A stretch of DNA of 64,000 nucleotides, from the NCBI GenBank assembly GCA_023920165.1, contig CP089278.1, positions 744,001-808,000 of the forward strand. Direction: 5' to 3'. Below, piece by piece: positions 6,985 through 26,871 of this stretch. A model generated the notes under the pieces. The model was not told the DNA's origin. It saw only the letters and a list, made by a program, of their open reading frames with translations, and made no database searches. Position numbers and translations under genes: made by a program. How positions within the stretch are numbered: the first letter of the stretch is position 1; every line of letters begins with the position of its first letter. The stretch is from Curvularia clavata (taxonomy: Eukaryota).

Positions 6985-9042
6985 ATGGACCGTCCGTTGC
7001 AAAGGCCCATCCAGCGACTTTTGGTCGCCAACAGAGGAGAAATTGCAACAAGAATCATTTCCACAGCCCGAGAACTCGGTATTGAGACGTACGCTATTTA
7101 TACTGCTGGCGACGACTCGCATGCTGCAAGAGCAGCTCATGCAATCCAGCTCGAGTCGGCAGCTACTTTCATGAGCATCGATGGCCTCATTGAAATCATC
7201 AGGCAACATCAGATCGATGCTGTGCACCCTGGATATGGCTTTCTTTCCGAGTCTGAGAATTTTTGCAAGAGAGCGTGGGAAGAAGCAGGTGCAGTAGTTG
7301 TGGGCCCTGGATGGGGTATCCTCAGTAATACCGGGGACAAGCTAAAGGCGAAACAGCTTGCTGAGGGATGTAAGTCACGTGGGTACAAGCGATACAATCT
7401 CCGTGAGACTGATTTCTATACAGGCAACGTTCCGACATGTCCAGCACTTGAGAACCCCACCAACAGGATCGAAGATATACAGCAATTTGCCTCACGGGTG
7501 GGCTATCCCGTCATGGTCAAAGCTGTAGATGGAGGTGGTGGTCGTGGAATCCGACTTATTCGTAGCGAAGATCAACTCGCGTCATCAGTGAAACGAGCAG
7601 TCGAAGAGAGCCCGTCCAAGACCGTGTTTGCCGAGAAGGCAGCAGTCGACGGCTTCCGACATATCGAGGTCCAGATTATCGGCGACGGCACCGGCAATGT
7701 GACGCATCTGTGGGAACGCGAATGCAGCATCCAACGGCGTTATCAGAAAGTTGTAGAGCTGGCGCCGAGCGTTGTAGCCGAGCGGTCGTTGATTGCGAAC
7801 ATTATCGAAGCCGCGTTGAGAATGGCAAGACATGTTCGTGAACATTGAACCCCATTCTGACAAACAAGACTGACTGTTGATTAGGTTCAATACTTCTCCC
7901 TAGGAACATTCGAATTTCTTGCCAACCCAGTCTCGAAAGAATACTACTTTCTAGAAGTCAATCCACGGCTACAAGTTGAGCATACCATCACCGAATGCAT
8001 ATCCATGACCGACATTGTCAAAGCCCAGCTCCTACTCGCCCAAGGAGCTACAATCGAAAGCTGTGGTCTCCCAAGCACCCCCAGAGACCCCAAGACGCCG
8101 CCGACTGCACATTCAATCCAGCTGCGCATTACAGCCGAAAATGTACAAAGCGACTGGTCTCTCTCGATTGGAAAAATCACCTCTTTCCAATTCCCCTTTG
8201 GCAATGGCATACGCGTTGATACGCACCTCGCCAGCAGCCGTCCAACCATCGTAACCTCCGACTACGACAGTCTTTTGGCCAAAGTCATCATCACAGCCTC
8301 CACCTGGCCCGACGCCGTGCGCAAAGCCCAGCGCGCCCTTTCCGACACGCAGATCAGTGGCGTGAAAACAAACATCGCTATGCTCCAAGCCGTAGCCTCG
8401 CACCCAGACTTCCTCGCCGGAAACTGCGACACACAGTGGCTTGAACGAAACCAAAGCGCACTGTTGCAACAAGCTCAAGCCATCTCCTCTTCATCCTCCT
8501 CCAATAACCTCTCCACGGGAGCGACATCCACGCCCACAACTCTCTCTACCCCAAGCACCACCCTCTTCCGGAAAGGCGACGCATGGTCTCTCGCCCTCTC
8601 GCCTGCCTCCAACCCCTCCCAATCTACACCGCACCACCTCGAACTAACCCGCATCCACCGCAACGACTTCCCTTCCTCCCTGACCGCCTCAATCCTGTTC
8701 ACCTCCCCTGGCGCCACACCAACGCCCTACACCCTGACTCTCACGTCGACCTCGGCTAGCGCCTCTGCCGCAACAGCCCAGCACCGCCGCGGCAATCCCG
8801 CCGACGCCTCGCACGTTGTGATACCTTTTCCAGGGAAGCTAGTTGAGGTGCTTGTGGAAGAAGGGGATGTGCTGGAGCAAGGGGATGTAGTGTGTGTTGT
8901 GCAGCAGATGAAGATGGAGTTGGAAGTGAGGAGTGCGCGGAGAGGAAGGGTGAGTTGGGTTGTGGAGGTTGCAGAAGGGGAGGATGTGGGAGAAGGGACG
9001 TTGGCGGCGGTTGTCGAGGTGGAGAAGAGTGCGAGATTGTAA
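6985..9042 (+). CDS. Biotin carboxylase + biotin-carrier (alpha) subunit of an acyl-CoA carboxylase, 3 exons
   Basis: LLVANRGEIA, HPGYGFLSE, KAVDGGGGRG, RHIEVQ, ERECSIQRRYQK, LEVNPRLQVEH, YDSLLAK. C-terminal biotinyl domain with QQMKME (biotinylated Lys); ends -KSARL. Confidence 0.92.
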
Positions 9043-9125
9043 CGTTTATGGCTTTGTTTTCGATACGTAGAGAGAAATATGTATGTACTAATCTGTATAT
9101 ATATATATCTTTGTTGAAAAGGGCG

Positions 9126-9797
9126 CTACATTATCTCGCATGTAACCCTCGTATGAACATTTCCCCTCGTCGCTCTACTGTATGGGCACACTTCTTGCGC
9201 TTTGTCCACGACTTTCTTTAGATCTTGCTCGGATAGGCCGCGTACTTTGACGAGTAGTTGTACGCGCAGACCCAGGTCGAGATCTTTCATGTTGCCGACG
9301 AGTTCGACGGTGGATTCGACAATGGAGTCGGAGGGGGTAGTGGGCATTTTTATGCCCATGGAGGCGGCGGAGGCGTTCATGGCGGATTGGAAACATGCGC
9401 CCTGAAGGGTGAAGGGGTGGGTTAGCATGTCTGGCATTGTGAAATGGAAAAGGGAAGGACGTACGTAGCCTGCAGCGAAGAGTTCTTCCGGGTTGGTTTT
9501 GCCCTTGTCGCCGGCGCCGCCAAGGGCTTTGGCCATGGTCAGATCGACCTTGAGGTTTTCGCCGTCGACGTGGCTATATTTGGTTTTGTTAGCTTTCGAC
9601 GCGGAAATAGATTACATTAGAGATGTAGAACGATTCTTTGCGTACCCTGTTCGTGCCCCGACAACTTTGGCGTGTGCCGAGTAGAGGCTAGGTGCGGTCT
9701 CGGTGTTCAGGAAGCGGCGGCATGGCGGTGCAATGATGCTTCGCTGCGAAACGCGAAGAGCATGGCGAAGCGTTGGTACAACAGATTTACTGGCCAT
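9126..9797 (-). CDS. ohr: Ohr/OsmC-family organic hydroperoxide peroxidase with probable mitochondrial presequence
   Basis: Spliced product has ARTG, TNPEELFAAGYGACF (peroxidatic Cys) and VCPYS (resolving Cys). The N-terminus MASKSVVPTLRHALRVSQRS... is Arg/Ser-rich and lacks acidic residues. Confidence 0.9.
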
Positions 9798-10374
9798 TGT
9801 GTTAAAAGATTTCATGAGCAGAAATGTTTAACAGTTGAGAACCAGGAAAGAAGATTGAAATATAAACAATTGTGTGAGAGGAAAGCTAATTAACTCCAGG
9901 TTACGTAGACTCAACAGTAGAGCGAAAGTTTGGGAGCTATGACAGCTGTGACGTTGCTGCATCCGTCCGGCTCTGCTCTGCATGAATGCAAAAGTCATGA
10001 CGTTTGCGAGAGAGCTTCATTGTGGAGCTTAGCGGGTTAGCGCGAGGTACTCCCGCCGCTAGGAAGCGAAATCTGGGGGAAGGGTAAGCTGGTGTGGAGC
10101 AAGCAGCGTGGAATCTCAAGGTAGGCAAACCGATCAAAGAAGTAGCAAATTTTAGATGTTAAACATTGTATACTACGCAAGGCACAACACTTCGTTGGTG
10201 ATCATAATGCCGGAGATTGTTGCAGGTGACATGGCACACTGACAACACTGTGTTGGGATAACGCTAAGAAAATGGAAAGTGTTATAATAGAGAAAAGAAC
10301 AGAGCGCGATATTTTGTGATCAACAATAGAGATTCTAAGCTTTTTGTGCAGTGCTTCGTGTTTCATGACATTGT

Positions 10375-11686
10375 TCAATAATCTAATGTCTTTTTGATAG
10401 CGTCGTACACCCCTAATCAGGTTAGAACAAGGTAAAGCCATGTGAGACAGTGGAACAACTTACGTGTAACGTCCGGAATGATGAATTGCTCAAACATGAG
10501 CCCAGTGTGTGTTGCCCAACCGGTAACCCTCTTCACTGGAGCCTCTAACCTCAGGAAAGCCTTTTCTTGGATGGTAGCAGCAACCTCTGCGCCGACGCCA
10601 GCGTTCATCATGCTCTCGTGGACTACAATGGCTCTGCCAGTCTTTTTGACGCTTTCCAGAACCGTCTCGCGATCCCAGGGGTAGATGGTTCGCAGATCGA
10701 TCAACTCGACACTGCATCCAAAGTCCTTCTCGGCAGCTGCTATGGCGGCAGAGCAAGTATAAAGTGGGGTGCCGTAGGATATTATTGTCACGTCCTTGCC
10801 TGTCTTGACAACTTCAGCCTTGTCTAGTGGAAGGTGGTAGGCATCGACTGGGACTTGCTCAACAGCAGCGCGATACAAGATCTTGGGCTCCATGAAGATG
10901 ACGGGGTCTTGGCAGCGAATGGCAGAAAGGAGAAGGCCCTTTGCCTGGACGGGCGAGCGAGGTATCACGACGCGGAGACCAGGTGTGTGAGTGAAGAGGG
11001 CCTCTGGTGACTGTGTGTGGTATCTAGGCAAAAAGTCAGTTTTGGTAAGGATTCGGGTAGCTCATCACTTACAGAGCACCGTGTCCGACGCTGCCCGTTG
11101 GCATGCGTATGACCAAGCCACCACAGTTGACACCAGTTTTGCCTGACCGATACCTGTACTTGGCGGCCTCGTTGTGGATCTGGTCGAATGCGGGGAAGAC
11201 GTAGTCTGCAAACTGGACCTCTGCTACAGGCTTCATGCCCTCGGCGGCAGCACCAATGGCAAAGCCGACCAGGCCCTGCTCGCTCAATGGCGTGTTGAAG
11301 ACACGCTCTGTACCAAAATCGCCAGCCAGATTCATGGTGCAGCGGAAGACACCTCCAAACTGAACGTCCTCTCCGAAGACCATGACTCTTTCGTCCGTCT
11401 GAAGGGCATGTCGAAGGGCCTCGTTGATGGCGGTGTACAGGTTGATGCGCTTCGTCTGGCCGTTCCGTATCTCTGCGGGCAACTCGGGGTTGGAGAGGGC
11501 GGACTTGGCCGTGTGATGGAGGATTGGGGTCGTGTCGTACTCGACTGTGCCATTGAGACGTGCGCCTGGTGCAGCGGCCGAATAGGTCCTGCGTTGGATG
11601 CGGGCTTGACAGAGAGGGCGAAGCGGAGTCTGAGAGCGCAGCAGGGAACGCGACAGGGTACGGACTGAGGGAGTTTTGGAAGCCAT
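10375..11686 (-). CDS. Branched-chain 2-oxoacid (2-oxoisovalerate) dehydrogenase E1 beta subunit, mitochondrial, 3 exons
   Basis: [73 protein letters not shown]; mitochondrial-type N-terminus; last exon [10 protein letters not shown]. Confidence 0.93.
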
Positions 11687-12442
11687 TATGACCGAGGCGA
11701 GAGCAACACGTCTATCCAGCAACAGTGCAAAGAGACATGTATGCAAACCATGGTGGGCGTAAACAGGCGAGCCGACGGGTTTGCGGTTGTGCGGTTGTAT
11801 GCGGCGGCTAACCGCGGCTCTCCAGCTGGGATGCAGCGCGGAGGTGAGTTGCGGGTTCCCCGGACCGGACGGCTCGTCATGTGTTTCACCAGCCACTATT
11901 CAGCCACGGCAGTTTGAGCTACGGAGCATAGCTGCAGCCACAGCTAGCCACAGCGCATGCACAATGACGCCGAGAGTGGCTTCCAGGGTGTGTCATTGTG
12001 GTTCCCACGGTGGAGACAGCCTAGCGTAAGCGTGTATGAATGCGTGTGTGGTGGCGGCGCCTCGGCTATCTTTTTCGTCTGCATGCAGGGCTGGTTCCTG
12101 CGCATGCTTGGATTCGTAACGATGGGCAGCGTGAGCAGAGGACTTCGAGACGGTGGCAGAGACTGCCCAGCGGCGGAAGCTTGGCTGCATGTGTTGCCAT
12201 GGGCGCGAGGCTCTCTTTTGTTGGGGAAAACGCTGGGCGCTCTCTCAATGGCGGGTCCTGGCCTAGCCTGCCAGGCGGGCCGCGCACGGGCCATCCAAAC
12301 CGCTGCTTCCGCATCGCCATCATTATTTGCGCAACCACCCACCAACGGCTTCCGTCTGCCCAGCACGCTTCGCTCCTCTTATACGGCCGCCGTCTTCATC
12401 CACCCCGCGCACTACGGTGCCTGCATCTTGCTAGCTGTGGCT

Positions 12443-14856
12443 ATGGCAATGAGCGCCTCACACTCTCGGCCTGCCAATGGCCTGTCGCTCCCCGCGCTGC
12501 GCCTGGCCTTCATCGCCCTGTGCCATGCATTCGCGCCCATGGTTACCGCGCTTCCTATGCCCTTTGGCGGCATCATCACCACCCTCCACGAGGCTGACGA
12601 CGACCTGCCCAAGGACGCCGACGACCCGCAGCTCTGGCTCTTCCTGGGCATTGCTGTCGCGTTGGTTCTCGCTGGTGGTGTCTTCGCCGGTCTGACCATC
12701 GCGTGAGTTGAACCCGTCCTCCACCTGCCCCCCCTGCTAACAGCTTCTTTATAGCTTGATGGGACAGGATGAAATCTACCTCCAGGTACTTGCTTCGTCT
12801 GGCGAGAAACACGAGCGTAAGAACGCGAAGAAGGTGCTCAAGCTGCTTGAGCGAGGCAAGCATTGGGTTCTGGTCACATTGCTTTTGAGCAACGTCATCA
12901 CAAACGAAACACTTCCTATTGTGCTCGACCGGTCTCTTGGTGGAGGATGGCCTGCCGTTGTTAGCTCCACGGTGCTTATTGGTACCGTCTTTCCATTCTC
13001 TGCTCTTGTTGATCACGTCTAATGTCTACTAGTCATCTTCGGAGAGGTCGTTCCTCAGTCGATATGCGTTCGCTACGGATTGCCCATTGGCGCCGCCATG
13101 GCTCCTATTGTCCTCGGACTCATGTACATCATGGGCATTGTCGCTTGGCCTACTGCCAAACTCCTCGATTTCCTCCTCGGCGAGGACCACGGCACTGTGT
13201 ACAAGAAGGGTGGGCTGAAGACCCTGGTCAGTTTGCACCAGTCTCTGGGACTAGAGCATGAACGCCTCAACGAAGATGAGGTTACCATCATCACTGCAGT
13301 TCTGGATCTCAAGGCCAAGGCTGTCGGTAACATCATGACGCCCATGAAGGATGTCTTCACCATGTCGTCCGACACAGTCTTGGACGAGAAGATGATGGAT
13401 AGCATCCTCTCTGCAGGATACTCACGTATTCCTATTCACACGCCTGAGAACGAAAACAACTTCGTTGGTATGCTGCTCGTCAAGATGCTCATCACGTACG
13501 ACCCTGAGGATGCACTGCGCGTCCGTGACTTTGCCCTAGCCACCCTTCCCGAGACACGCCCCGAGACGAGCTGCCTGGACATTCTCAATTTCTTCCAAGA
13601 GGGCAAATCCCACATGGTCTTGGTCTCTGAATATCCCGCAGAGGCTCGTGGTGCTGTCGGTGTTGTGACTCTCGAGGACGTCATCGAGGAGCTCATTGGC
13701 GAGTAAGTCAACACACTTGACACAATCTCAAAAACCTACTAACAGCAACAGGGAAATCATCGACGAGTCAGATGTCTTCATTGACGTTCACAAAGCCATT
13801 CGTCGCATGGCACCTGCTCCCCGCGCCCGTGTTCCCCGAGGTAAGATCGTTAGCGACATGTCACGCAAGACCTCTGAGGCGCTGGCTACTGACACTGAAA
13901 CGGATGGCGAGCAAAATGGCGCGCCGGCACAGCGCAACAGGTCACTGCCAAATATGCCTGACAATCATATCAAGCCCTCATTTGTACTTCGACGACGTAG
14001 CAGCGGTAGTAAGACGGGCATGTCACCCCTACGTAGTGACGATCCTGCCGTTTTGGAACACCTCAAGCATCTCGGTCCTTCAAACGCTGCTACTCGACCC
14101 AAACAAACACGCATCAACACCGTCAAGATTAAGCCTGGCTCCACCACGACAGGTCCCGACATCCCGAAGACGATACCGGAACATGACCAAGCTCCAACTG
14201 AAACTACACAGACCGAAGGTGTCATCACGCAAGATTCGCATGCCCCTGAAGGCGGAGTCGGCGAAGGCCTTCTTTCTTCTGCAGGCCGTGAGGCTAGCGA
14301 CGGAGTCCACAGCGTGGCTGTGGGATATGGCACTATGGCATCAAGTGTTGACCGTATGTCGTGGAGATCTGGCCGTTCTGGGCGTTCTGCAAGGTCTGGT
14401 GCGGCGGAGCGTGACTACGAGAATACCTCACCTAAGAGCAAAACTCATGATGACGAGACTTCGCATCTGCTAGCCAAGAGCGACGACCATCAGAATGGTC
14501 ATTCAAGAGGCCGATCCCGATCCGTTAGCACCATAGCTTCCTTGCACTCAGTTCCTACACCGGCGCACAGCCCCGTTCGACGCCATACTGCTCGAAGTGG
14601 CAGCATCTCCGAGAACGTCGTAGACGTCGATGGTATCAAGAAAATTGTTCTTGAAACCACTAGTTCTAGCGATTCAGAAGGCAAGGGTGCTGGCAGCCGC
14701 GCCGGCACACATGAGGACAACAAGCATTCGGAAGCTGAGTCCTCACACAACGGCGGCAAAGGAGCGAGCAAAAAGAAGAGGAAGAAGCGTGGTAAGAAGA
14801 AGAAGGGAGGTGCTGCAGACGGCCACGAATCGCAACCTCTGCTCGGAGACAAGTAA
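12443..14856 (+). CDS. MAM3: CNNM/DUF21 + tandem CBS domain metal-homeostasis membrane protein (Mam3-like)
   Basis: [80 protein letters not shown]; acidic-dileucine tail ESQPLL; introns near 12703, 12982 and 13703. Confidence 0.88.
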
Positions 14857-15432
14857 TCTACTCCTCTCTGTGGCACAGTGTTAATGCATCTTGTGAACAG
14901 GTATTCTGAGTAACGTGGAGATTTCTTTTTTCAACCGTGTTGTACCTGGGCAAGTCAATCGACACAAGTCGGCATCTTCTTCCTACTCGTTCTGCGCTCG
15001 CGAAATGGATGAAAATATTTGGCATCACTAAGTTTCTGGGTTTGCGTCTCTTTTCTTCGGTTCCTGTCATTGTACGATTAAGTCGGGGGTGAGCATTTTT
15101 TTTTAAAACCATGATATTGGGTGCTGTCATTGCGAGTATAGCAATACAATGTTGCGCTTCATGTTTGCTGACTCTTGATTTTGATTGCAGTGACTTTGCG
15201 GTAACACTATCCACAGCTTGTCCTTTTTTTTCTGCATGTGAGAGAGCCCTGAGCGTGTTTTTTTCTCATCAATTTTCTATCTTGTTTTTTTCCTGCTTCT
15301 TCAACAATATCCAAATCTATTCCAACCAAACTCATCAGTTTCCAGTTGAGAGCCGCCCGTGCGAAAATCAACCTCAAAATAACAGGAAAATAAAAATTCT
15401 CCCTCATAACAGAAAGATTCTTTCAACCGCCA

Positions 15433-18400
15433 TTAGTCAAAAAGCCCATATTTCATCTTCTTCCGTGGCTTCTTCGCCTGTGAAGCAGGAGCAAGCTCCT
15501 CAAACCCCACCTCTGCATCCACCAGCTCCCTTGCTACTTTCCACACCTCCCTCTTCGCCTCATCCTCGACTATACCTTCCAACCACGCATTGGCCTTCTC
15601 AACCACCAACTCCCACGTATCTTCCTCGTCTGGCATTTTCTTTTGTAGGAAAACGACGACGAGGGCGGTCGCGAGAAGCTTTTCAGCTGAGCCTGCGTCG
15701 GGTGCTATGCCGTTGGCGAGAAGGGATTCCGATGCGGTTTGTGCGGAGGAAGGAGAGACACGGAGGTTGCTGAGGGGGAGGGTGGCGAGGGAGGGCCAGG
15801 GGCCGGAGAAGGTTTGGAGGGAGATGAGGTGGTGGAGGAGGGAGGTGGATGTGGGCACTGGGTTGGGTTAGTCACTTCTTGGTTCACAGTTTCGAGGAAT
15901 TTGTAGGTTGGGAAGTGAATGGAAAGCTGGGGGGAAAGGTATGGGAGTAGTAAGGGCTGGCTAGACTTACCTGGCGAGTTCTCCTCCTCCTCTGATTCTT
16001 CGTCTGACTCTTCCTCTTCCTTTTCTTCTTCGCGGGAGTATTCTGCGTCGTCGATTTCGGCTTCGACATCAATAAACATGTTGCGGCTTGCCTTCTTTCT
16101 CGCTGGGGGTGGGGCCTGAGAAGTATCAGCAGCTGGAACTTTGAACATCTTATTTCGCGTGTAGACTTACTGCAAAACACGCATCCTCATCATCATCGAA
16201 CAGGCCGAAGCCCATATCATCGTCTGAATCGTCGGATTCTTCGGTATGCGGGGGCGGGGGCAGGGGTGCTGGTTTCGTTACTGACTGCGACTTCAAGCCG
16301 ACCTTCAATCTAGCACCAAATGTTGACATGTCGCCGCCTCGATTCCCTCCTCTGCCTCTGGCTCGTCCCACTCCTCGTACTCGTCTTGACGTACCTGCGC
16401 TTCCATAACCGGTTGCGATGATGTTGTTAGCACCCATATACCGTCGATAACCCTGCGAACTGCGTTCTGGGGCTGGTGATGGGAAGGTTAGAACTTGGGG
16501 ACTGAATGTAGGGCAGGGCGTATAATTACGTGTCTCGAGCATCTCCCAATCCTCTTTGTCTTCATCTTTGCCGTCAATCTTTCGATTTGTCATTGCTTCC
16601 AGGGCTTTTTGACGTTTGTTCAAAATCTCGGCTTCGTTGGCTTCGACAGCAACAAACGAACAGTATTTTCCGCCTACTTGGAACTCTACTCCAAGACGAA
16701 CAGCTTCGCGTCGTGCAAGTCGGGCGTACATGCTGCCTTGCTTCTTTTTAAGCAGCTCACCAGTGTCATCAAGAATAGCGTCTGAGAGCCAGCCTTGGTC
16801 TTCTTCGAGTTCTTTGGTTGCTTTGCGTGCTGCGAGCTGGTGGATCATCTCGTCGGCATCTTTGCGCGGTTTGACTGGAATCTCGAGCTCGAGGGGACCC
16901 TGTGGGGAAGTGGCCTTGAGGACCACGCTCTTTGGTTGGAGGTGCGAAGACTCAGGGGCCATGAGCAGGTAAACACAAGTGCGATTGAACGGGAAAAGCG
17001 CGGGGATTTTGTGAGGTGTCTGCAAGAGCGTAGGGCGCTTGAGATCTGGAAGCCCTGCAAAGATGTCCTCGATTTCATCCTCTTTTGGATGCTCTTCCTT
17101 AGCGTCAGCGTCGTATAGTGAAATGGGCTGAGTCTGGGTCTGAGCCTTGTCGTTGGTGCTGTCTGCGTCTCCTATGTTCAGGCGTACGCGGAGACTATCA
17201 GCGACAGTGTCTACGCTGTCGTCTTCATACTTGACTTCAAGACGGTAGTCATTGATGTGTGGAGTAAGCGCTCCTTTCAACTAGAAAGAATATCAGTTGT
17301 GTTTTCATATACGAACTCAACCCGGGTACTCACCATGCGGACAATCTTGACATCCATCTTCTCGTTGGTTGCGACCATCTGGGCGAAGCCCCCGCCTGCT
17401 CGTGCGACGCCCTCAATCAACGAGCTCGAAACACCACTACCAATACCCAAGGGAAAGACCCTGACATCGCCAGCCTTAGTTTCTTGCCTGACATAATTGA
17501 AGAACTCCTCTTGCTGCCATATGTCGCCGTCAGTGAGCAAAATCAACTCGGTTGGGCTGTCAGTACTGCGATGTTTGAAACATCCTCGGACAGCAGCCAA
17601 AGTCTCTGTTCCACCAAAATCTGCCTGGAAAGTGTCGACATGCCTGTGGAAAGTTAGTATAGTGCTCAAGGAGTATTGATCGTGTTCATGGATCACGATT
17701 CCTGGGTAAAATTACTTACTTCAGAGCCTCGGTCAGCGTATCCTCATCATAGAGCTTGCTTTTGTCCCAAAGGAACCGATGTCCAGATCCAAAAGAGCAA
17801 ATGTTGAATGTACAACCGAGGGGTATCGACTTCAAAAACACCTTCAGTGCCGCCTTGAGAGTTACCATGCTTGATCCTTCCATGCTCCCAGAGCGATCTG
17901 CAATTAGTATGATCTCTGGTCTCTCTGATTTGAGGTTGAACCTAGGTACCAGCGTAGCCATCAAAGCGCGCTGGTTTGGCAGTGTCGGGTGAGTCTCCAG
18001 AGTCGCCTGTGGAGCACCGACGTCCTTTGCAACCACCTGGAGGACAAAATCCTGCTTGAGCTCCACGGTGTCAAGGGCGAGCGTGGCCGAACCCCGAGTG
18101 AGTGATTGCTCTTCATCTGAAGTACTAGTGGACAGTGAACCGAGTGTGACCTGAATGGGATGGGATGGAGAGATGATCTTTTTGATAGGCGCTCCCTCAA
18201 CCATATCGATATCGACCGTAATTGTCATGCCCCTGGAATTGATCGCTTCAGGTGCTGTTTTCAGAGAACCGGGATAGTCACCATAGCGCGGAGCAATATG
18301 TGTTGGAATGTTAAGGCGCACGCCATCGACTTCGGCATCGTGTTTAAGTTCCTGTACATATTTGACGGTAACCTGCACAGATGCGTCCTTGGGAATATTG

Positions 18401-18813
18401 CTGATTGTGGTTGTGAATACATCTGCAGCGTCAGGTAGCTGCTCTAGCAGCGCGGCGTTTTCTCCACGATCCTTGGCCTCTTTGTATGTTTTTCTGGCTT
18501 CGTTCTTTTCTTTCACTAGACCATAAATCGTGCGCTCACCGATTTGGCAGAAGAAATCTACGATGCTGACACCATCGTACAACGGGAAAGAATATCTGTT
18601 ACCAGGAATCAGTTATGTACATACCTTGAAAGAAAGGAGAAGAACCTACTTGATCTCCTGCAGAGATTCGTTCGAGTCGTTCATGAAAGTCTGCGTTAGT
18701 ACCGTCCGGGAAGCTGTCGATAAGATAGTTGTGTGAGCGTCAAGCTTGATCTGTGGCAAGTAGCTCCGCCCGTGATGCGAGCTGTAGACGTAACACCCGC
18801 AAATGTGAGACAT
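15433..18813 (-). CDS. VIT (vault inter-alpha-trypsin) + von Willebrand factor A domain protein (VWA5A/ITIH-like), multi-exon
   Basis: VIT: YSFPLYDGVSIVDF..GLVKEKNEARKTY..ALLEQ..DVFTTTISNIP. vWA MIDAS: DRSGSM, GGTE, LTDG. C-terminal LISLQTFSGPW block. Canonical introns include 16473-16529, 16116-16170 and 15858-15970, and the frame is preserved across them. Confidence 0.88.
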
Positions 18814-20172
18814 GATGAATATGGTTCTCGCTCAACGAGGGCAAGATTTCGTTACAAGCCAATGATGATTTATGCCGCGAATGGCGTCGCCGTTATAAAA
18901 GACACTATATCTTGAGATGGAGAGATGGATTGCAACCAAGAGAGTAAAGATACGGAGAAGGACTCGTTGCTCTATATATACTTACTGCTGTTGGCTGCCT
19001 AATACCTGGGTCTTGGCAAAGTTACTGTACCAAGAACCCCAGCTCAGCTCGGACAATCAGTAAAACCGCGAATAGGCCACCAAGCGGTAATCCCTACCAA
19101 AACTCGACACTTTTAACACGAAATATCAAAACAACTACAGACTTCTTTTAGAATCGAATACACTAGATTTAGTATTTATATTGAGATTTGATATATATTA
19201 GGTTTTAAAGAATTAAAAATGAAAACAGAGCACTGGACTTCTGTTGGAATCAAGCGCCCGTATAAAGCCACCGTGCTGCCACTATGGTTTTTTCGCGGTT
19301 TTACCGATTGTCCGAGAGCTCAGATCATTACCCTGATGCTCCACGGAAAGCACGTGACACTGTTCCGTCCCTGTATTATAAACATAAACATTGGATGTGT
19401 GAGTCAAAGGATATTACCAGGGTCAAGATGTGCTGGAATCGAGGTTTGTAGTTGTTATGGCAGACCCGAGTCGTTGGGAGGAATGAGTCAGGCCTTCCAC
19501 TAAGCAGCAAGCCGCTCCAAGCTCACCGGTATGCTGTTTACATGTTCCCTCGGCTGTGGGTTAGGATTCCCGAATCCTTTGCCTTAAAGTGACTCATTTT
19601 GGATCATACTTGGGCCCTTGTTTCCTAAACTTGCTCAAATTCCAGAATTCGCGATGGGGACCATTACATGGCGTGGCACGCTTTCTAGACGCCGTACCCG
19701 AATCCAGTAGTATAAGTACCATGACGCAACAAATAAACAATTCACAACTGTGAGAAACTGGAGTCGATTGGAACAAGACATCGGTTCAAGGTTAGTGAAT
19801 TCGTTCGCTTGATTGATTTGGGAACTGTGCAATGGTCTTGATGAGAACGTGGCGATTTTGCAGGCACCACCCATCTGTGCGTTACAAAATCTTGGCGCCT
19901 GTTTTAGAGCTCGACGCTTCAAGATTAACATACTCGTTTCACCGACTGCTTGCTGTATCTACACGTCGCGACTTTCAACTGTGTTGTTTAGAAGAAGGGA
20001 AGGATCAGCCGAAGTGTCTCATCACCCGTGTTCTCAGACGGTGATTGTGTCATGACGTCAATCCTCATCGCACATTCTGAAACGCTACATTTGTCCATAA
20101 CGATATGAGATTCATTTGAGATCTGAACATCTGTTCTCCCTTCTGCATGTTGTAATCAGTTTCTTTCTCACT

Positions 20173-21240
20173 ATGGATATTCCTGGATACAATGCGGTGG
20201 TGACTTACACCACGCCACCTAACAACTATGTCGGCGCCACGGTATTCCTCTCCTACATTGTCGCTGCATTATATGTGTCATTCACAATTACGTGGTCTCT
20301 CTACTCTCAATACACCAGCATATTCAACGCACCAGCCTCGAAGAAAGATGAAAAACTCGATGCAGCTCGCACGGCGCGGGCACGACACATTAAAATCTAC
20401 GCCTTCCTTGCTTCTTTGAGCTTTGCGTCCATATCGTACCATATGCTCATGTTTCTCGTAACGCACTACCTAGAATGGAGCGGGAACAAGACTCAAGGCC
20501 TAAGCGATGTAAAGATAGAACAATTCAAGAGATGGATGCTGGAGTCGACTCTATTCCAGGACTTTGCCCAGGATTTAGTTAAGAACGCGCCCAACGCAGT
20601 GTGGACTCAAACCGCAATTCTGGCAACGTGGTTCTGGACTATCTACGTGGCTCAGAGAGGTGAGATGAATCACATGACCCGGGTGTCAATGTCTGCTAAC
20701 AAACATGTAGCGAGAGCACGCAGATACGACGCATCCGTGATGCGCACCTACACGCTGCTGAGCCAGATTCTCCCCATGTCTTTTACAGTCTTGCTCTTCC
20801 TTATTCAACTTCATCTCTCATCTCCAGACATCCAATCTGCGAAGATTGCGCAGGATCCGGCCAAGTCCAGCTCTGTACCAAAACGACGCAAACCGATAGC
20901 TTCGTTGCAGATCCCCAATATCCTGCTCAATGCCTCTCTACTGGCTCTCCCGGCTCTTCGCACAAATTCCGTTTTCAGTGTCCTTCTACTCATGCAGCGA
21001 TCAATACTGCTTCTACCGCATTTTTCATTCATGAGTCTCAGAGACGCCGACGTGGTCAAGTGCATTACGGTCTCTGGAGGATTTGTTGTTGCAAACCTAG
21101 CCATGTTGAAAAAGGATCTGGGTGTTGGCGGAGTTTTGGGATCCCTTGGAGACGGTGGCTATGCGATCAAAGCATTAAGTTGGGATGCGATATTTGGCTT
21201 GGTAACCTACGCAGTGTTAGGATGGGCTGGTGGTGTTTGA
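20173..21240 (+). CDS. Fungal multi-pass membrane protein of unknown function
   Basis: Long ORF with several hydrophobic segments (VGATVFLSYIVAALYVSFTITWSL; YAFLASLSFASISYHMLMFL; SQILPMSFTVLLFLIQL); probable in-frame intron ~20660-20710. Confidence 0.75.
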   Translation: MDIPGYNAVVTYTTPPNNYVGATVFLSYIVAALYVSFTITWSLYSQYTSIFNAPASKKDEKLDAARTARARHIKIYAFLASLSFASISYHMLMFLVTHYLEWSGNKTQGLSDVKIEQFKRWMLESTLFQDFAQDLVKNAPNAVWTQTAILATWFWTIYVAQRGEMNHMTRVSMSANKHVARARRYDASVMRTYTLLSQILPMSFTVLLFLIQLHLSSPDIQSAKIAQDPAKSSSVPKRRKPIASLQIPNILLNASLLALPALRTNSVFSVLLLMQRSILLLPHFSFMSLRDADVVKCITVSGGFVVANLAMLKKDLGVGGVLGSLGDGGYAIKALSWDAIFGLVTYAVLGWAGGV

Positions 21241-21750
21241 GCGGTTTAAAGGTATAGACCTACCCCATAATCTAAAGCTTGAATTACAAATTAGAGGAAG
21301 GATAGAAGCCGAAAAGACTCCAGCAATGTGCTTTGATACATAACAATCCGGACTTTAGTTTTCAATGCCCTAGCGATGCATAAAATCGACCGCTGTATGC
21401 AAGACCAAAGACATTTGAGGAGCTACCGGTATAGTGCGGCCGAGGAGAGACACCTTGCATGATGACCAGTAATAGCTAGGGATTGAATTGGATCTGCGTG
21501 ATGGCTTTCCAGGTATTTACGAGGGCTTTTCAAAGGCGGTACCAGAGGACTTTGTAGATCAGGCTCCATAACTTCCAGGAATGTTCAGACTTCGGTAGTG
21601 AACAGGAGGGCTGTGGGTCGCGCGCTCTTAGCTCAGTCTCAATTCCGTCATCGATGTGTATTTCTAAAGGATTTAGCTTGCGAAATGGCAATGATACACT
21701 TTGCCCTAGGACTAAATCCCGTCGAAATATGCCGACTTATGAGTCGCTAC

Positions 21751-23019
21751 TCAGACTACATGATCGAAGGAATCCATCATATCGACAATAAAATCCCCAA
21801 CATCATTGCTTTCTTCGGGCAACAACTGCGCCGGATGCTCAAACATTTGGCCGTTGTGTTCTGGTGCTCGAAATTGAGAAAGGAAGTGTTCGGGAGGATC
21901 GATTTGCTCTGGAAATCCGGGATTGAACGCTGTCTGTTGGTAGGAAGGCGTGTGGTAATGTAGCTGCGAATTGGCATAGGGCGGGCGGTTACGAGTGTCC
22001 ATTTGGCTTGTCAGAGCTTCAGGCAGGGTTTGTATTGACCTTGGGAATTGCGGATGGCTCTGCAGCTGCCACCCAGTGCTGATGTGGCTTGAAGCAGGCT
22101 GCGACTGCATGAAGCCGCTGTAATTTTCCAACTGGTATCCTGCAAGCACTACTGACGATCCAGGTTGTGAACGTAACTGTCCGAAACCCAAATCAGGGAC
22201 TGGATTCATACCAAACTGTGTCGATACCGGTTGAGAATAGCTTTCTCGCATTGGCACAGTTGGTGGCCCCGTTGAATACGAAATTGGGTTCCTATTCGCA
22301 TCGGCCGGCCAGTACGATTGCGACGGACCCATTGATGGAGGATTGAAGCCTTCGATGCCATGAAAGTGGGCAGGGCCAACGGGGTTTTGGGATAGAAAGT
22401 GAAGCCGCGAATCCACACTGGAGTGCATTGTTTCCAAATGAACCCTTTCTCGAACGGGATGAGAAAAGGTTACATCAGTCGACTGATTCACCACAGGCAA
22501 ACTGATTCCAGCAAGGTTGTTTGGTTGCCCTAGCCTGGTCATCCTTCTACCATCGGAAAATTGTTCATGACGCGGATATCGCTGCTCCACGTGTGGTTGC
22601 CCAGAATTTCCTGGTAATTGATGTCCCAGCCGATAGTTTGAGGGTCGTTCGCCCATTGGATAAGGAAACGATGATTGATAGATGCAACTCGTGGCTCTTC
22701 GTCCCGTGGAAACGTAGTTCGCTGACATTTGCCGATTGTAACGTGGTTTCTGGTTCTCAATAACAGAAGCATTGGGCATTCGCGCAGCAGGAATCAAGGG
22801 TCGTGGTCTGCTTTGATGCACATTAGGCCGACGACTGGGAGCCTGGCCTGAACAGCGATGGGCATCTACGCCTGAAATGCCACCATTTCCAGGATGCTGG
22901 CCATAGTTGCATCTTTGAGAACCAATTGCTGGAACATACAAAGCCTGTACAATGTTAGCCATTGAGCCTTGAAGAACATCGAACGAAGTCAAAGGCCTAA
23001 ATCCAGAATTAAAATGCAA
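21751..23019 (-). CDS. Hypothetical low-complexity (P/Q/S-rich) protein; possible upstream exon 23064-23267
   Basis: 422-codon open frame, disordered composition, no recognisable domain; exon junction not resolved. Confidence 0.45.
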   Translation of the reverse strand: MHFNSGFRPLTSFDVLQGSMANIVQALYVPAIGSQRCNYGQHPGNGGISGVDAHRCSGQAPSRRPNVHQSRPRPLIPAARMPNASVIENQKPRYNRQMSANYVSTGRRATSCIYQSSFPYPMGERPSNYRLGHQLPGNSGQPHVEQRYPRHEQFSDGRRMTRLGQPNNLAGISLPVVNQSTDVTFSHPVRERVHLETMHSSVDSRLHFLSQNPVGPAHFHGIEGFNPPSMGPSQSYWPADANRNPISYSTGPPTVPMRESYSQPVSTQFGMNPVPDLGFGQLRSQPGSSVVLAGYQLENYSGFMQSQPASSHISTGWQLQSHPQFPRSIQTLPEALTSQMDTRNRPPYANSQLHYHTPSYQQTAFNPGFPEQIDPPEHFLSQFRAPEHNGQMFEHPAQLLPEESNDVGDFIVDMMDSFDHVV

Positions 23020-25396
23020 AGCACCATAAATTAGTGATTAGTTTAGATTTTGCTAATGTCGAATTAAACAGGGTGACCTACAGAGGGATGAAAACCGGAT
23101 GACGAGTTGTTAGAAACCATGTTACTTCGGCCTATTTCCAAAATAGAGCTAGTCTGGGGAGAAGGACTTTCTTTCTGTGGAGACGTGGGATCAATAACAT
23201 CTCCCTGCGATGGTAGACGCTCCTCTTGCTTCTTAGTATGATTTCGCTTTGATCTGGAGTTGGCCATGCTTGATATTACTTTCTCTTAAAGATGTGTTAA
23301 AATTCAGGAATCCCAATTTGATTTTATAGACCATGAGCTACTGCCTAACCTCCTCCAAGAATGTCGTCTGAGTACCTTCTCAACCTTGGTTGAGTCGGAG
23401 AGATATCACGAGTATGGCGCAAGATGCTACCGAGTTTTCAGAGGAGTCAAGAGACGGCCACAAGGTATTCAAAAGATAGAGCTCGATAAGAGACGCTGTG
23501 CTCTCTCACTATTAGAAGACTTCAGCCTTGCCGACGAGTCTCCAAAATTTGCAGCATAAAGAACCGTCATATCAAGATGTGAACACAGCAGGTCACCCCC
23601 AGACAAAAAATCTATTCAAGGCAACATCACGCGAGCGAAGGGATGAAAGAAAGATAGAGACGACACGTTGGTACTCCCGGCCTTGAGCAGTAGATTCAGC
23701 TTCCCCCAAGCCCATGATTTATGCGCTCATCCTCGCGTAGCTACCTCGACCTCCCAACAACTCTCCTAACGAGGTCAGAGCGTCGCTATAGCCTTCGTGT
23801 TCATAGGCTGTGAGCCTTTCTTTCTCATGGATAAGATGCTGGTCAAGAGTGCAAGCACGCGTCCTTCATCGCCACGACACACAGCACCGCCGCAGGCTTG
23901 ACCAACAATAGCTCGCTCCGCCATACTGTCCGTGTTATTAGATGGCTCCACACATGAAAAGAATCTGGGGAGCCTTTCAGCACTGTTAAAGTCAACTCCA
24001 CCAAGCTATCTGCTCTCGCGGTTATGTAGTTCTGCACCGAGCTTCTGTGGATGCGATCTCGCTAGACATTTGGTAACTACGGATAGAGGCAAATAACCTG
24101 ACCATGAGATCCGCTTAAACAAATAGACCTATAGGAAGACGTCGAATATATCATTGTCCAATCGGACCGCTTGTATCACATGTCTCAACTGTGCTTCCAC
24201 TGTGCCTCGGACAGCCGTTCGAAGGGTCCGGTCTTTGGATGAAACGGGTATGGAAAAGACTTAACGACCTCCGAGAAGATTTCTTTATCTTTCGATCTAT
24301 TTAAGCACGTTTCGGGGAGCTTGAAACCTACTGCCTATGAATAAATCTGTCGAGAAAAGAATGTTTTTTGTCCGTTTACAGTGCACGTGATATTGGCTCA
24401 TTTCCTCTACAACACACTCCTTAGACTGTTATTACCGTATCACATCAATCATGCAGCTAACACTTGCATTGAATTAAGCTGACATTGAGATAATAGTATG
24501 CGCTTAGCCATCGAGGTGGAGACTATACTATACTTCGACTGTACCTAATATTCCCTCGCTTGATAGCACTGCGACCAAAAAAAGACTAATAAAGGTAAAA
24601 AAAGTTCGATCTAGCAGGATTTCCCTCGTCTATATTATTTTGTATGAAGAAGCCATCAAATGCTCAGATTCACTAACATCTACTATTTTTAGATCCCTAT
24701 TGACTTCCTACCGTCTCCATCCCTATACCTTCGAACCTAGAATCTATAGAATTAGACTCAAGTTCACCATAGTCACACACAAAACCTCCATCTCACACCC
24801 CCGTCACCGTCACCTCCGCTACCAGATCCATCGTCTAATGGATCCACTTCACAAAACGCGCCACTCATACACATACAACCAACCCCACTTCTGAGGCGAA
24901 AAAAGGTGAATAGTACCACAAAATCACAAACCCCCATAGTCTCACGATCCCGTACCTAAACCCCAAAAAATGTCTAAATAAAATGAAATGAAAACAGAGC
25001 GAGACGAGCGCATGAAGATGACAACATCATACTCCCCAATATCACCACAACGCATCCTGAGCACAACACCTAGGGGAAAGCGATTTGGAAAAGCTAGGAT
25101 AACGGTCAGAATCTCTCTGCAATGAGTCAAATAAAAATATATTTACGTAGACAACGTATTGCTGAAAACTTAGATGAAACTGAACTGACACTGTAGCGAC
25201 AAAGTGCAGACACTGAACCGCAATCATCAGCTCTTTGCCTGTGTTCTGTGATCGTATATATCAATACCAGTATCACTTCACAAAAAGAAAACGGCTGATG
25301 TATGCTCCTTTTTTACATTATCTACTTAACATTTCAACGTCATTTATGAATCATTTACTATGCCAGTCCTCTCAGGAAAGCGTCTTCAACAACGCT

Positions 25397-26871
25397 CTAC
25401 GCACGAGACATATTCTCGCCCTCCTCCGCCTTCTGCAGACCGTACTTCTTGAGACTATTACTCCGTTAGTACCTTGAATCTAAAGGCAATTAGAAAAGCA
25501 AACTTACCGAATACTCTGAATCGCAATAAAGCCAGTCGTGTCCATTGGGCTAAAGTTATCCAAGGTATCCATCGACGCCTCCTCCTCAGAGTACAGCTTC
25601 TCCGTCTTGCTGGAGCGACCCAGCACATAGGCATTGCCCTTGTACAGCTTCATCCTGACCTCACCATTGACCCTGCGCTGCGAAAAGAGCAGACTGTTCT
25701 CGATGAACTCGCGCTCGGGCGAGAAGTACATGCCGTTGTAGAGCTGGTAGCTCCAGTTGTGAGTGACGAACTGGTCGCGGAGGTTGCGGACCTGGGCGTC
25801 CATGACGAGACCCTCGAGGTCGAGATGGGCAAGGCGGAGGATGGTCATGGCGGGGGAGTCGTAGCAGCCGCGGGACTTGAGGCCGATGAAGCGGTTCTCG
25901 ACAATGTCGATACGGCCGATGCCGTGGGTGAAGCCGAGCTTGTTGAGCGCAACGAAGAGCTCGACCGAGTCGGTGTAGGTCTTTTCGGGGGTTACGACCT
26001 TGACGGGGATACCCTTCTCGAAGTAGACGGTGATGTCGGTGGGCTCATTGGGGGCGTTCAGAGGCGAGTCGGTCATGGTCCACATGTCATCTGGGGGAGA
26101 AACGTCGGGGTCCTCGAGGATACCTGCGCTTGTTAGTCAAGTCCGAGCGAGCGGGAAAACTCGTAGTCTTACCAGCCTCGTAACTGCAGTGTGCCAGGTT
26201 GGCGTCCATGCTCCATGGCTTGGCCTTTGTGGATGTGACGGGGATGCCATGCTTCTCAGCATAGTCTAGCAGATCCTGCCTGCCCTTGAAGCGGTCGCAG
26301 AACTCTGGCATCCTCCATGGCGCAATGACCTTGATGGAGGGCTGTAGTGTGTAGAAAGCCAGCTCGAAGCGGACTTGGTCGTTACCCTTGCCTGTGCAGC
26401 CGTGCGAGACGAAACCGCAGCCTTCTTGTTGTGCGACACGGATCTGAGCGCGGGCGATGACTGGACGAGCCAGCGAGGTTCCGAGAAGGTAGCGACCCTC
26501 GTAGGAAGCATTGCACTGAACAGCGCGGAAGCAGAGCTCCTCGACGAACTCCTTTTGCAGGTCGAGGATGACCATCTTCAGCGCACCAATCTTGAGCGCC
26601 TTCTTCTCCACCTCGTCCCATGGCTCGTCCTGGCCAACGTTGGCGAGGAAGCAGACAACCTCGTATCCCTCCTCTTCACTGGTATGTTAGCTCAAGCTAA
26701 GAGTGGGAATGCTGTCCTGGCGTACCAATGAGCCATTTGAGGATTGTGGAGGTGTCGAGACCACCTAGTGACTCAAGTTAGTCCATGTGTTCCGTAGTGT
26801 TGGCATTGCTGCGAAGAAGTCTGTAAAGAAAACATACCAGAGTATGCTAGACAGACGCGTCCCTTTGACAT
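25397..26871 (-). CDS. ARG1: Argininosuccinate synthase (multi-exon)
   Basis: [90 protein letters not shown]; last exon [18 protein letters not shown]. Confidence 0.97.

Follow-up and report, generated by a model that had tools for sequence, protein, structure and literature searches.

The window analysed here is a stretch of 64,000 nucleotides (nt) from the fungus Curvularia clavata (Pleosporales, Dothideomycetes), positions 744,001 to 808,000 of contig CP089278.1 in assembly GCA_023920165.1. On its minus strand, at 18813..15433, lies a gene with seven to eight introns that codes for a PARP4/VWA5A-like protein with a VIT and a vWA domain. Within this gene, 33 bases of the minus strand (16227..16195) encode SDDDMGFGLFD, an exact match over all 11 residues to the tail that ribosomal P-stalk proteins carry. 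Few peptides of eukaryotes are as invariant as the stalk tail, which serves as a handle for elongation factors, for Gcn2 and for ribosome-inactivating toxins. The motif is a genuine, expressed copy of this tail and not a product of chance. The motif was observed on an exon of spliced contigs of a relative from two studies (public sequencing runs X1 and X3). The stalk tail is read here as one unit in a display of copied conserved tails that extends across the family, as copies of other such tails were found in the same linker of related proteins. The parts of the gene that bear directly on the motif are the following:

15433..18813, minus strand: the whole VIT-vWA coding region, with the ATG at 18813-18811 and the stop at 15435-15433 (gene model, 100% NCBI match, seven splice joints in the relative).
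16195..16227, minus strand: the 11 codons of SDDDMGFGLFD (translation; Pfam Ribosomal_60s profile positions 73-88 of 88, E 1.9e-4).
16171..16268, minus strand: the motif exon, 98 nt, coding (A)PLPPPPHTEESDDSDDDMGFGLFDDDEDACFA, bounded by splice joints in X1 and X3.
16269..16394, minus strand: an intron of 126 nt, in frame and stop-free, that holds an arginine-glycine-glycine (RGG) patch, with GTACGT..CAG ends (joint depth 590.7 in X1, 112.6 in X3).
16473..16529, minus strand: a predicted in-frame, stop-free intron of 57 nt, GTAATT..CAG with a CTAAC branch (the relative's joint is 16475/16530 in X1 and X3).
16116..16170, minus strand: the intron right after the motif exon, 55 nt, with a GTAAGT donor (joint in X1 and X3; frame check).

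The motif falls within an open frame of 376 codons (16150..17280, minus strand) that continues from the vWA-associated region. The residues on its two sides read RRVRGVGRARGRGGNRGG ... PAPLPPPPHTEESDDSDDDMGFGLFDDDEDA, as they had been quoted in an earlier note on this stretch. A gene model built from splice signals gave introns of 54, 76, 53, 57, 55 and 113 nt and a protein of 990 amino acids (aa). A database search with the motif-bearing exon returned the NCBI hypothetical protein yc1106_06871 of C. clavata (1009 aa, 100% identity; P0001 hereafter), a model that translates through both the 57-nt and the 126-nt in-frame introns. Once all introns are removed the product has 948 aa. The motif occupies residues 802-812 of the 1009-aa form and 741-751 of the 948-aa spliced form.

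The splicing of the gene was followed in runs X1 and X3, which come from two studies and represent one relative, 95-99% identical to the window. The record only guesses at the library kind of these runs, but their seven GT-AG joints identify them as spliced RNA. The contigs of the relative were spliced at all predicted introns, with joints at 18595/18650, 17642/17719, 17280/17334, 16475/16530, 16114-16115/16170-16171 and 15857/15971. At the fourth of these the relative's RNA removes 54 nt where a 57-nt intron is predicted in C. clavata. The same contigs also skip 16269-16394, the 126-nt in-frame intron, which was missing from the initial prediction and encodes the whole RGG patch. This intron is retained in one contig of X1 (record 2, depth 179.1 vs 590.7 for the spliced form), and X3 holds only the spliced form. 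The joints on either side thus place the motif on its own exon of 98 nt and give a main product of about 948 aa. Since the relative's RNA removes both in-frame introns, the protein deposited at NCBI is probably 61 residues too long. The 126-nt and 57-nt introns, both in frame and stop-free, look like optional coding segments ("exitrons") in the linker of the protein. The runs closest to the window, X9 and X23, leave the motif exon uncovered, and the splicing of this exon in C. clavata is read across from the relative. X9, an RNA library, includes a contig that is identical throughout and whose loose end fits the exon 2/3 junction.

The earlier note had proposed that the motif is exonic and in frame, and the contigs of the two studies bear this out by placing it on a spliced exon of its own. 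The GTAAGT donor directly after ...DACFA is real, being the start of a 55-nt intron spliced in both X1 and X3. The upstream intron is frame-neutral, as had been said, and is spliced, at 54 nt in the relative vs 57 nt predicted. The suggestion that an RGG RNA-binding patch stands alongside the motif found no support. The patch is mostly spliced out with the 126-nt intron in the relative's RNA, and a joint module of RGG patch and stalk tail is not the main product.

The occurrence of the motif beyond C. clavata was studied in 120 homologues, the best of 1090 matches; the set is rich in near-identical Alternaria sequences, and the counts made on it are phylogenetically non-independent. The alignment of the linker is unreliable outside the motif, and the main count was therefore alignment-free, a scan with the 11-mer of the motif. 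At least 7 of the 11 identities were found in 58 of the 120 homologues and at least 8 in 50, in every case at 0.67-0.90 of the protein length. Two of 600 shuffled control sequences reached 7/11 and none reached 8/11. Among the 62 homologues that showed no copy, 15 are models of less than 800 aa that have no linker. Exact SD[D/E]DMGFGLFD is present in five homologues (P0001, P0035, P0043, P0049 and P0066). This string has been reported as the stalk consensus (PMC3280276). When the motif exon was compared with the Pfam family Ribosomal_60s, it matched the last profile positions (73-88 of 88) with E 1.9e-4 and 22.3 bits, under the 28.1-bit cut-off. The whole P0001 protein matched positions 72-88 of 88 with E 0.024, under the same cut-off. 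PDB chains of P1, P2 and P0 align to the motif up to their final residue, with E values (0.08-0.5) that are weak because the match is short.

In the alignment of the homologues, no block of the linker other than the motif columns is conserved. The counts are S 71/100, D 66/100, E plus D 77/101, D 67/90, M 59/90 and G 76/90 over the first six columns, followed by F 56/89, G 46/74, L 37/75, F 59/76 and D 50/84. The carriers include named species of Alternaria, Bipolaris, Diplodia, Fusarium, Staphylotrichum, Candelina and Candelaria, and they span at least three classes of Pezizomycotina (Dothideomycetes, Sordariomycetes and Candelariomycetes). A quick FastTree tree was made from the columns of the folded body only and rooted at its midpoint. 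Carriers were found on either side of its deepest split, in 13 of 48 rows on one side and 45 of 72 on the other. Since the carriers lie on both sides of this split and in at least three classes, the copy is judged from these sequences to be old, and to have decayed or been lost many times. Some derived forms have become fixed in particular clades, namely MGFALMD and MGFGCFE, each in its own Alternaria group, and MGCGLFD in Bipolaris. In the relative represented by X1 and X3 the motif reads SDEDMGFCLFD, with a D-to-E change at 16219 and a G-to-C change at 16206; a third difference in the exon is counted without an itemised position. Cysteine was seen to replace a different core residue in each of three lineages, namely G in this relative, F in Bipolaris (P0003, P0016 and P0072) and L in an Alternaria clade (P0004-P0012 and P0014).

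These comparisons bear on three further statements of the earlier note. It had held that the match is unlikely to be chance, and the 58 of 120 homologues with at least 7/11 identities, vs 2 of 600 shuffles, agree with it. Its term "molecular mimicry" is a fair description of a true stalk-tail copy that is kept in orthologues. The conservation is real in so far as 58 of 120 homologues keep at least 7/11, and is not strict, as the core is changed in the relative, in Bipolaris and in Alternaria. Core changes in close relatives and in whole clades weaken the idea of a precise handle for toxins.

A search of 1.84 billion representative proteins with the 32-residue motif exon returned only one protein, P0122, at E <=0.001; this search recovered neither the stalk proteins nor the VIT-vWA family themselves, was underpowered and has no bearing on the rarity of these copies. 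P0122 (402 aa, an ENA record) is a ubiquitin ligase with RING and Deltex-C parts that carries two internal acidic DDDLGFGLF motifs, besides a pair of GLF[DN]D motifs. An unrelated ligase thus bears stalk-like motifs as well, a hint of a wider class of such motifs.

The protein that carries the motif consists of a folded body, a long linker and a helical C-terminal domain. Its remaining features are the following:

18358..18744, minus strand (span includes intron 1): the VIT domain, P0001 residues 24-134 (Pfam PF08487, E 5.1e-33).
17379..17916, minus strand (span includes the 76-nt intron): the vWA domain, P0001 residues 282-435 (Pfam PF13768, E 6.9e-26).
15971..16115, minus strand: an exon coding a basic patch that is followed by an acidic box (NMFIDVEAEIDDAE...EEEE, a long Glu/Ser run), with a weak likeness to the Spt5 N-terminus.
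15858..15970, minus strand: an intron of 113 nt (joint in X1 and X3).
15517..15849, minus strand: the C-terminal helical domain, P0001 residues 872-982 (AlphaFold2 (AF2) helices with a predicted local distance difference test (pLDDT) score >90).
15436..15510, minus strand: a disordered C-terminal extension that ends KKPRKKMKYGLFD-stop (C-termini compared across the 120 homologues; AF2 pLDDT <50 for residues 989-1009).

The VIT domain of P0001 was recognised by PF08487 (E 5.1e-33) and also by PF13757 (E 6.9e-17). The metal-ion site of vWA domains follows the motif DxSxS...T...D. Across the 120 homologues, D288, S290 and S292 of this site are nearly invariant and T359 and D385 are invariant. The folded body is ITIH1-like (Foldseek E 1.6e-28), and the top PDB sequence match of the protein is PARP4 (E 2.6e-23). 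In the AF2 model, made with the 120-row alignment, the body and the helical C-terminal domain (872-982) are confident, and residues 689-866, a linker of about 180 residues, and 989-1009 are disordered. The motif lies in this linker with a pLDDT of about 30. The full-length model docks it on no domain and hence lends no support to intramolecular binding. The N-terminus (MSHICGCYVYSS...) leads straight into VIT strands in the model, and no signal peptide is evident by eye. Pfam searches of P0001 with E up to 1 found no NB-ARC or NACHT, LRR or thioester domain; no Pfam match to the uL10 domain or to the dimerisation domain of P1/P2 was found in it. The best Pfam family for the acidic box after the motif is Spt5_N (E 0.24, 12.8 bits, profile positions 1-32), which is a hint only.

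The C-terminal domain is possibly the domain common to VWA5A and Vwa1, which has been described for these proteins (PMC10539598), and possibly related to the MINT domain of PARP4. In PARP4 the parts follow one another in the same order, with a MINT domain at the end (residues 1562-1724; PMC12280208). Residues 861-934 of the homologue P0066 aligned weakly to PARP4 1575-1649, a match that is non-significant alone. Foldseek on the whole model gave no PARP4 MINT chain among the approximately 45 matches listed.

After the helical domain, P0001 carries a disordered extension of about 25 residues that is unique among the 120 homologues. It has a basic KKPRKK patch and then ends in MKYGLFD-stop. The last four residues of the stalk tail are thereby placed at the true C-terminus (5 of the last 7, with Y for F). 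The relative represented by X1 and X3 keeps KYGLFD-stop: the 13 differences listed in 15400-15857 all lie outside these codons. For binding to the ricin A chain, no stalk peptide shorter than GLFD has been reported, and the last Asp is critical (PMC6162817).

Copies of other tails were found in the same linker of related proteins, among them P0066, P0021, P0047, P0064 and P0048. In P0066, residues 713-745 correspond to residues 2-34 of histone H3 (E 4e-10, 31/33 identical). In P0021, residues 732-770 match residues 9-50 of histone H3 (E 8e-6) and residues 825-843 match residues 4-22 of histone H4 (E 3e-4). P0047 matches the heptads of the RNA polymerase II (RPB1) C-terminal domain at 671-737 (E 1.3e-17) and Pfam Spt5_N at 805-845 (E 0.0023). 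Phenylalanine-glycine (FG) nucleoporin repeats were found in P0064 over the Pfam cut-off (36.6 vs 32.2 bits). A census of such tails was made with phmmer, using index-taken slices as queries and a threshold of 12 bits, which lies above all of 360 shuffled sequences. Among the 120 homologues it counted H3-like copies in 20, H4-like copies in 18, polymerase-like heptads in 2, an Spt5N-like copy in 1 and an FG-like copy in 1. The stalk slice, less sensitive in the same census, was found in 14. Several of the histone copies in these linkers show K-to-M or K-to-R changes when examined by eye. As the same linker holds, in relatives, copies of H3 and H4, of the polymerase heptads and of FG repeats, a decisive context that the earlier note had overlooked, any explanation must cover the whole set of tails and not translation alone.

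The genes on both sides of the VIT-vWA gene, at 7885-14856 and 20101-26686, are housekeeping-like (biotin carboxylase, a transketolase-like dehydrogenase subunit, a CNNM/CBS transporter and argininosuccinate synthase). The long open frames at 20101-21240, 21751-23037 and 25453-26136 gave no Pfam match.

A role in "tail display" is proposed for the motif, tentatively and with a little less than even confidence. The motif would be a short linear motif on a flexible tether that captures proteins which dock on the stalk tail, with the body and the C-terminal domain coupling the capture to a partner. The linker would hold out the motif as a tethered bait, and the ITIH1-like VIT/vWA body, with its intact metal site, would act together with the helical domain in the coupling. 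By analogy with what has been reported for Vwa1 of Dictyostelium, the partner may be a ubiquitin ligase. Vwa1 works with an F-box/RING ubiquitin ligase in a relationship other than that of a substrate (PMC10539598). The captured proteins could belong to the cell itself, such as eEF2, eEF1A or Gcn2, or could come from outside, as ribosome-inactivating toxins do. Translational GTPases are activated by the stalk tail, and Gcn2 interacts with it (PMC11624264, PMC6919976); according to the literature drawn on, trichosanthin, ricin A and Shiga toxin A1 dock on this peptide too. A role in surveillance or as a decoy is slightly preferred here, since the machines from which the tails are copied are unrelated and share little except being conserved hubs. 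In its full form, this would be a so far unrecognised surveillance device of filamentous ascomycetes, a conserved PARP4/VWA5A-like scaffold on which the best conserved and most often attacked tails of the cell (ribosomal stalk, histones H3 and H4, polymerase heptads, FG repeats) serve as baits. A toxin, effector or viral protein in search of those hubs would be caught and handed to a ubiquitin ligase or would trigger a response, and the optional in-frame introns would vary the baits. This full form appears distinctly unlikely as a whole; if true, it would amount to integrated decoys outside the NLR (nucleotide-binding leucine-rich repeat) world.

Several observations weigh against tail display and its surveillance form. 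The motif is internal, and the natural stalk tail lies free at the end of its chain. With the ricin A chain, only the last six residues of the stalk tail have been seen bound, and its last Asp is critical (PMC6162817). A decoy of ordinary abundance would be unable to outcompete the stalk tails of all ribosomes, which would leave a sensor role only. The core of the motif is inexact, with G to C in a relative that is 95-99% identical, F to C in Bipolaris, and MGFALMD or MGFGCFE in clades of Alternaria. A recognisable copy is missing in 47 of the 105 homologues of at least 800 aa, and the body tree needs 20 changes of motif state, 15 of them forced by well-supported branches. The VIT-vWA gene occurs as one conserved orthologue with housekeeping genes around it, outside any expanded or variable gene cluster.

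Tail display has to be set against explanations in which the motif serves the cell's own translation, binds something else altogether or serves nothing. As an endogenous regulator of translation, the copy would compete with or replace stalk tails, hold or deliver eEF2, eEF1A, eRF3 and Gcn2, and so tune elongation or the response to starvation. This was the second idea of the earlier note, here taken without the RGG patch. The serine and the acidic run of P proteins form a CK2-type site, and in the family they are kept (serine in 71 of 100 rows); the family consensus SDEDMGFGLFD is that of the stalk. Together with the docking of translational GTPases and Gcn2 on the stalk tail (PMC11624264, PMC6919976), these features would suit such a regulator. 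It would, however, leave unexplained the copies of H3 and H4, of the polymerase heptads and of FG repeats in the linkers of relatives, and the RGG patch that suggested contact with RNA or the ribosome is mostly intron. A core that is changed or lost in many lineages would also be odd for a partner as invariant as eEF2, and a regulator of this kind is considered somewhat unlikely.

The same core changes read differently if the motif is a short linear motif that mimics nothing. It would then bind the protein's own vWA or C-terminal domain in autoinhibition, or an adaptor, or a kinase as a CK2-type pseudosubstrate, and its likeness to the stalk would be convergence or a leftover of its origin. 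The variants MGFALMD, MGFGCFE and MGCGLFD are fixed within clades, as if co-evolving with a private partner; an autoinhibited state has been proposed for Vwa1 of Dictyostelium (PMC10539598); and the unrelated RING-DTC ligase P0122 has two internal DDDLGFGLF motifs. Yet the motif is docked on no domain by AF2 (pLDDT about 30), and the consensus is the stalk tail letter for letter over 11 positions. Copying is moreover the theme of this linker, as the modules of relatives are long, near-exact copies of other tails (31/33 residues for H3), and a motif that is no mimic seems unlikely. The many independent decays and losses could also point to a relic without function, in which a captured exon or gene-conversion tract of a P1, P2 or P0 gene drifts neutrally in a tolerant, disordered linker. 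The small, modular exon is consistent with capture, and the exact match is limited to C. clavata in that two positions are already changed in its closest relative. An 11-mer under no selection, however, would not have lasted as the only conserved island of the linker across at least three classes while its flanks became unalignable, which makes a relic very improbable.

The exact 11/11 stalk copy, the RNA evidence for its separate exon, the RGG patch as an optional in-frame intron and the second GLFD at the true C-terminus are new here. No report of stalk-tail copies in non-ribosomal proteins, or of tail copies in VIT-vWA proteins, was found in the literature searched (subscription papers and supplements lay outside the search). 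The stalk copy stands beside histone and polymerase tail copies in one family, and this suggests that fungi make general use of "borrowed handles". Should the copies have the same binding partners as the originals, the family would represent either a new regulator that touches several hubs or a decoy-based defence in a kingdom with poorly known innate immunity. The family would also offer a natural test of whether the stalk tail works away from the end of a chain. Its human relatives, PARP4 and the proposed tumour suppressor VWA5A, are also poorly understood.

The known proteins closest to the motif are the stalk proteins P0, P1 and P2 (PF00428). They share the same 11 residues, with the E variant as the consensus of the VIT-vWA family, and in both cases there is an acidic, serine-bearing lead-in and the motif closes a flexible region rich in Pro and Ala. 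Unlike in stalk proteins, the motif of C. clavata is internal and is followed by DDDEDACFA and about 200 further residues, its host is a VIT-vWA scaffold, and its core varies among relatives. The C. clavata protein also differs from P1/P2 in having no dimerisation domain and from P0 in having no uL10 domain. In its overall plan it resembles VWA5A (BCSC-1), Vwa1 of Dictyostelium and the VIT-vWA-linker-MINT part of PARP4, all of which have VIT and vWA with hybrid and helical parts, then a variable region and then a helical C-terminal domain of about 100 residues (PMC10539598, PMC12280208). Fungal proteins have been placed in the intracellular clade of VWA5A, a statement of tree placement only (PMC10539598). 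Unlike PARP4, the C. clavata protein has no PARP catalytic part. The portions of PMC10539598 and PMC12280208 drawn on make no mention of tail copies in VWA5A, Vwa1 or PARP4.

The idea of a bait has its own counterparts. A copy of a pathogen target, or a stretch that attracts enzymes, is built into a host protein in the integrated decoys of plant NLR receptors and in the bait region of alpha-2-macroglobulin. The likeness to these systems lies in the bait; unlike them, the C. clavata protein has no NB-ARC or NACHT, LRR or thioester domain, and its gene does not belong to an expanded, variable family. Among mimics of tails, the K27M-like peptide of EZHIP and the histone mimic of influenza NS1 are reportedly of this kind. 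The K-to-M and K-to-R changes in the histone copies of relatives recall EZHIP. In the mimicry of the H3 N-terminus, likewise, a short copy of a conserved tail in another protein engages the readers or enzymes of that tail (PMC8166343). The H3 mimic, EZHIP and NS1 each copy one tail, whereas the VIT-vWA family strings several different tails in one linker.

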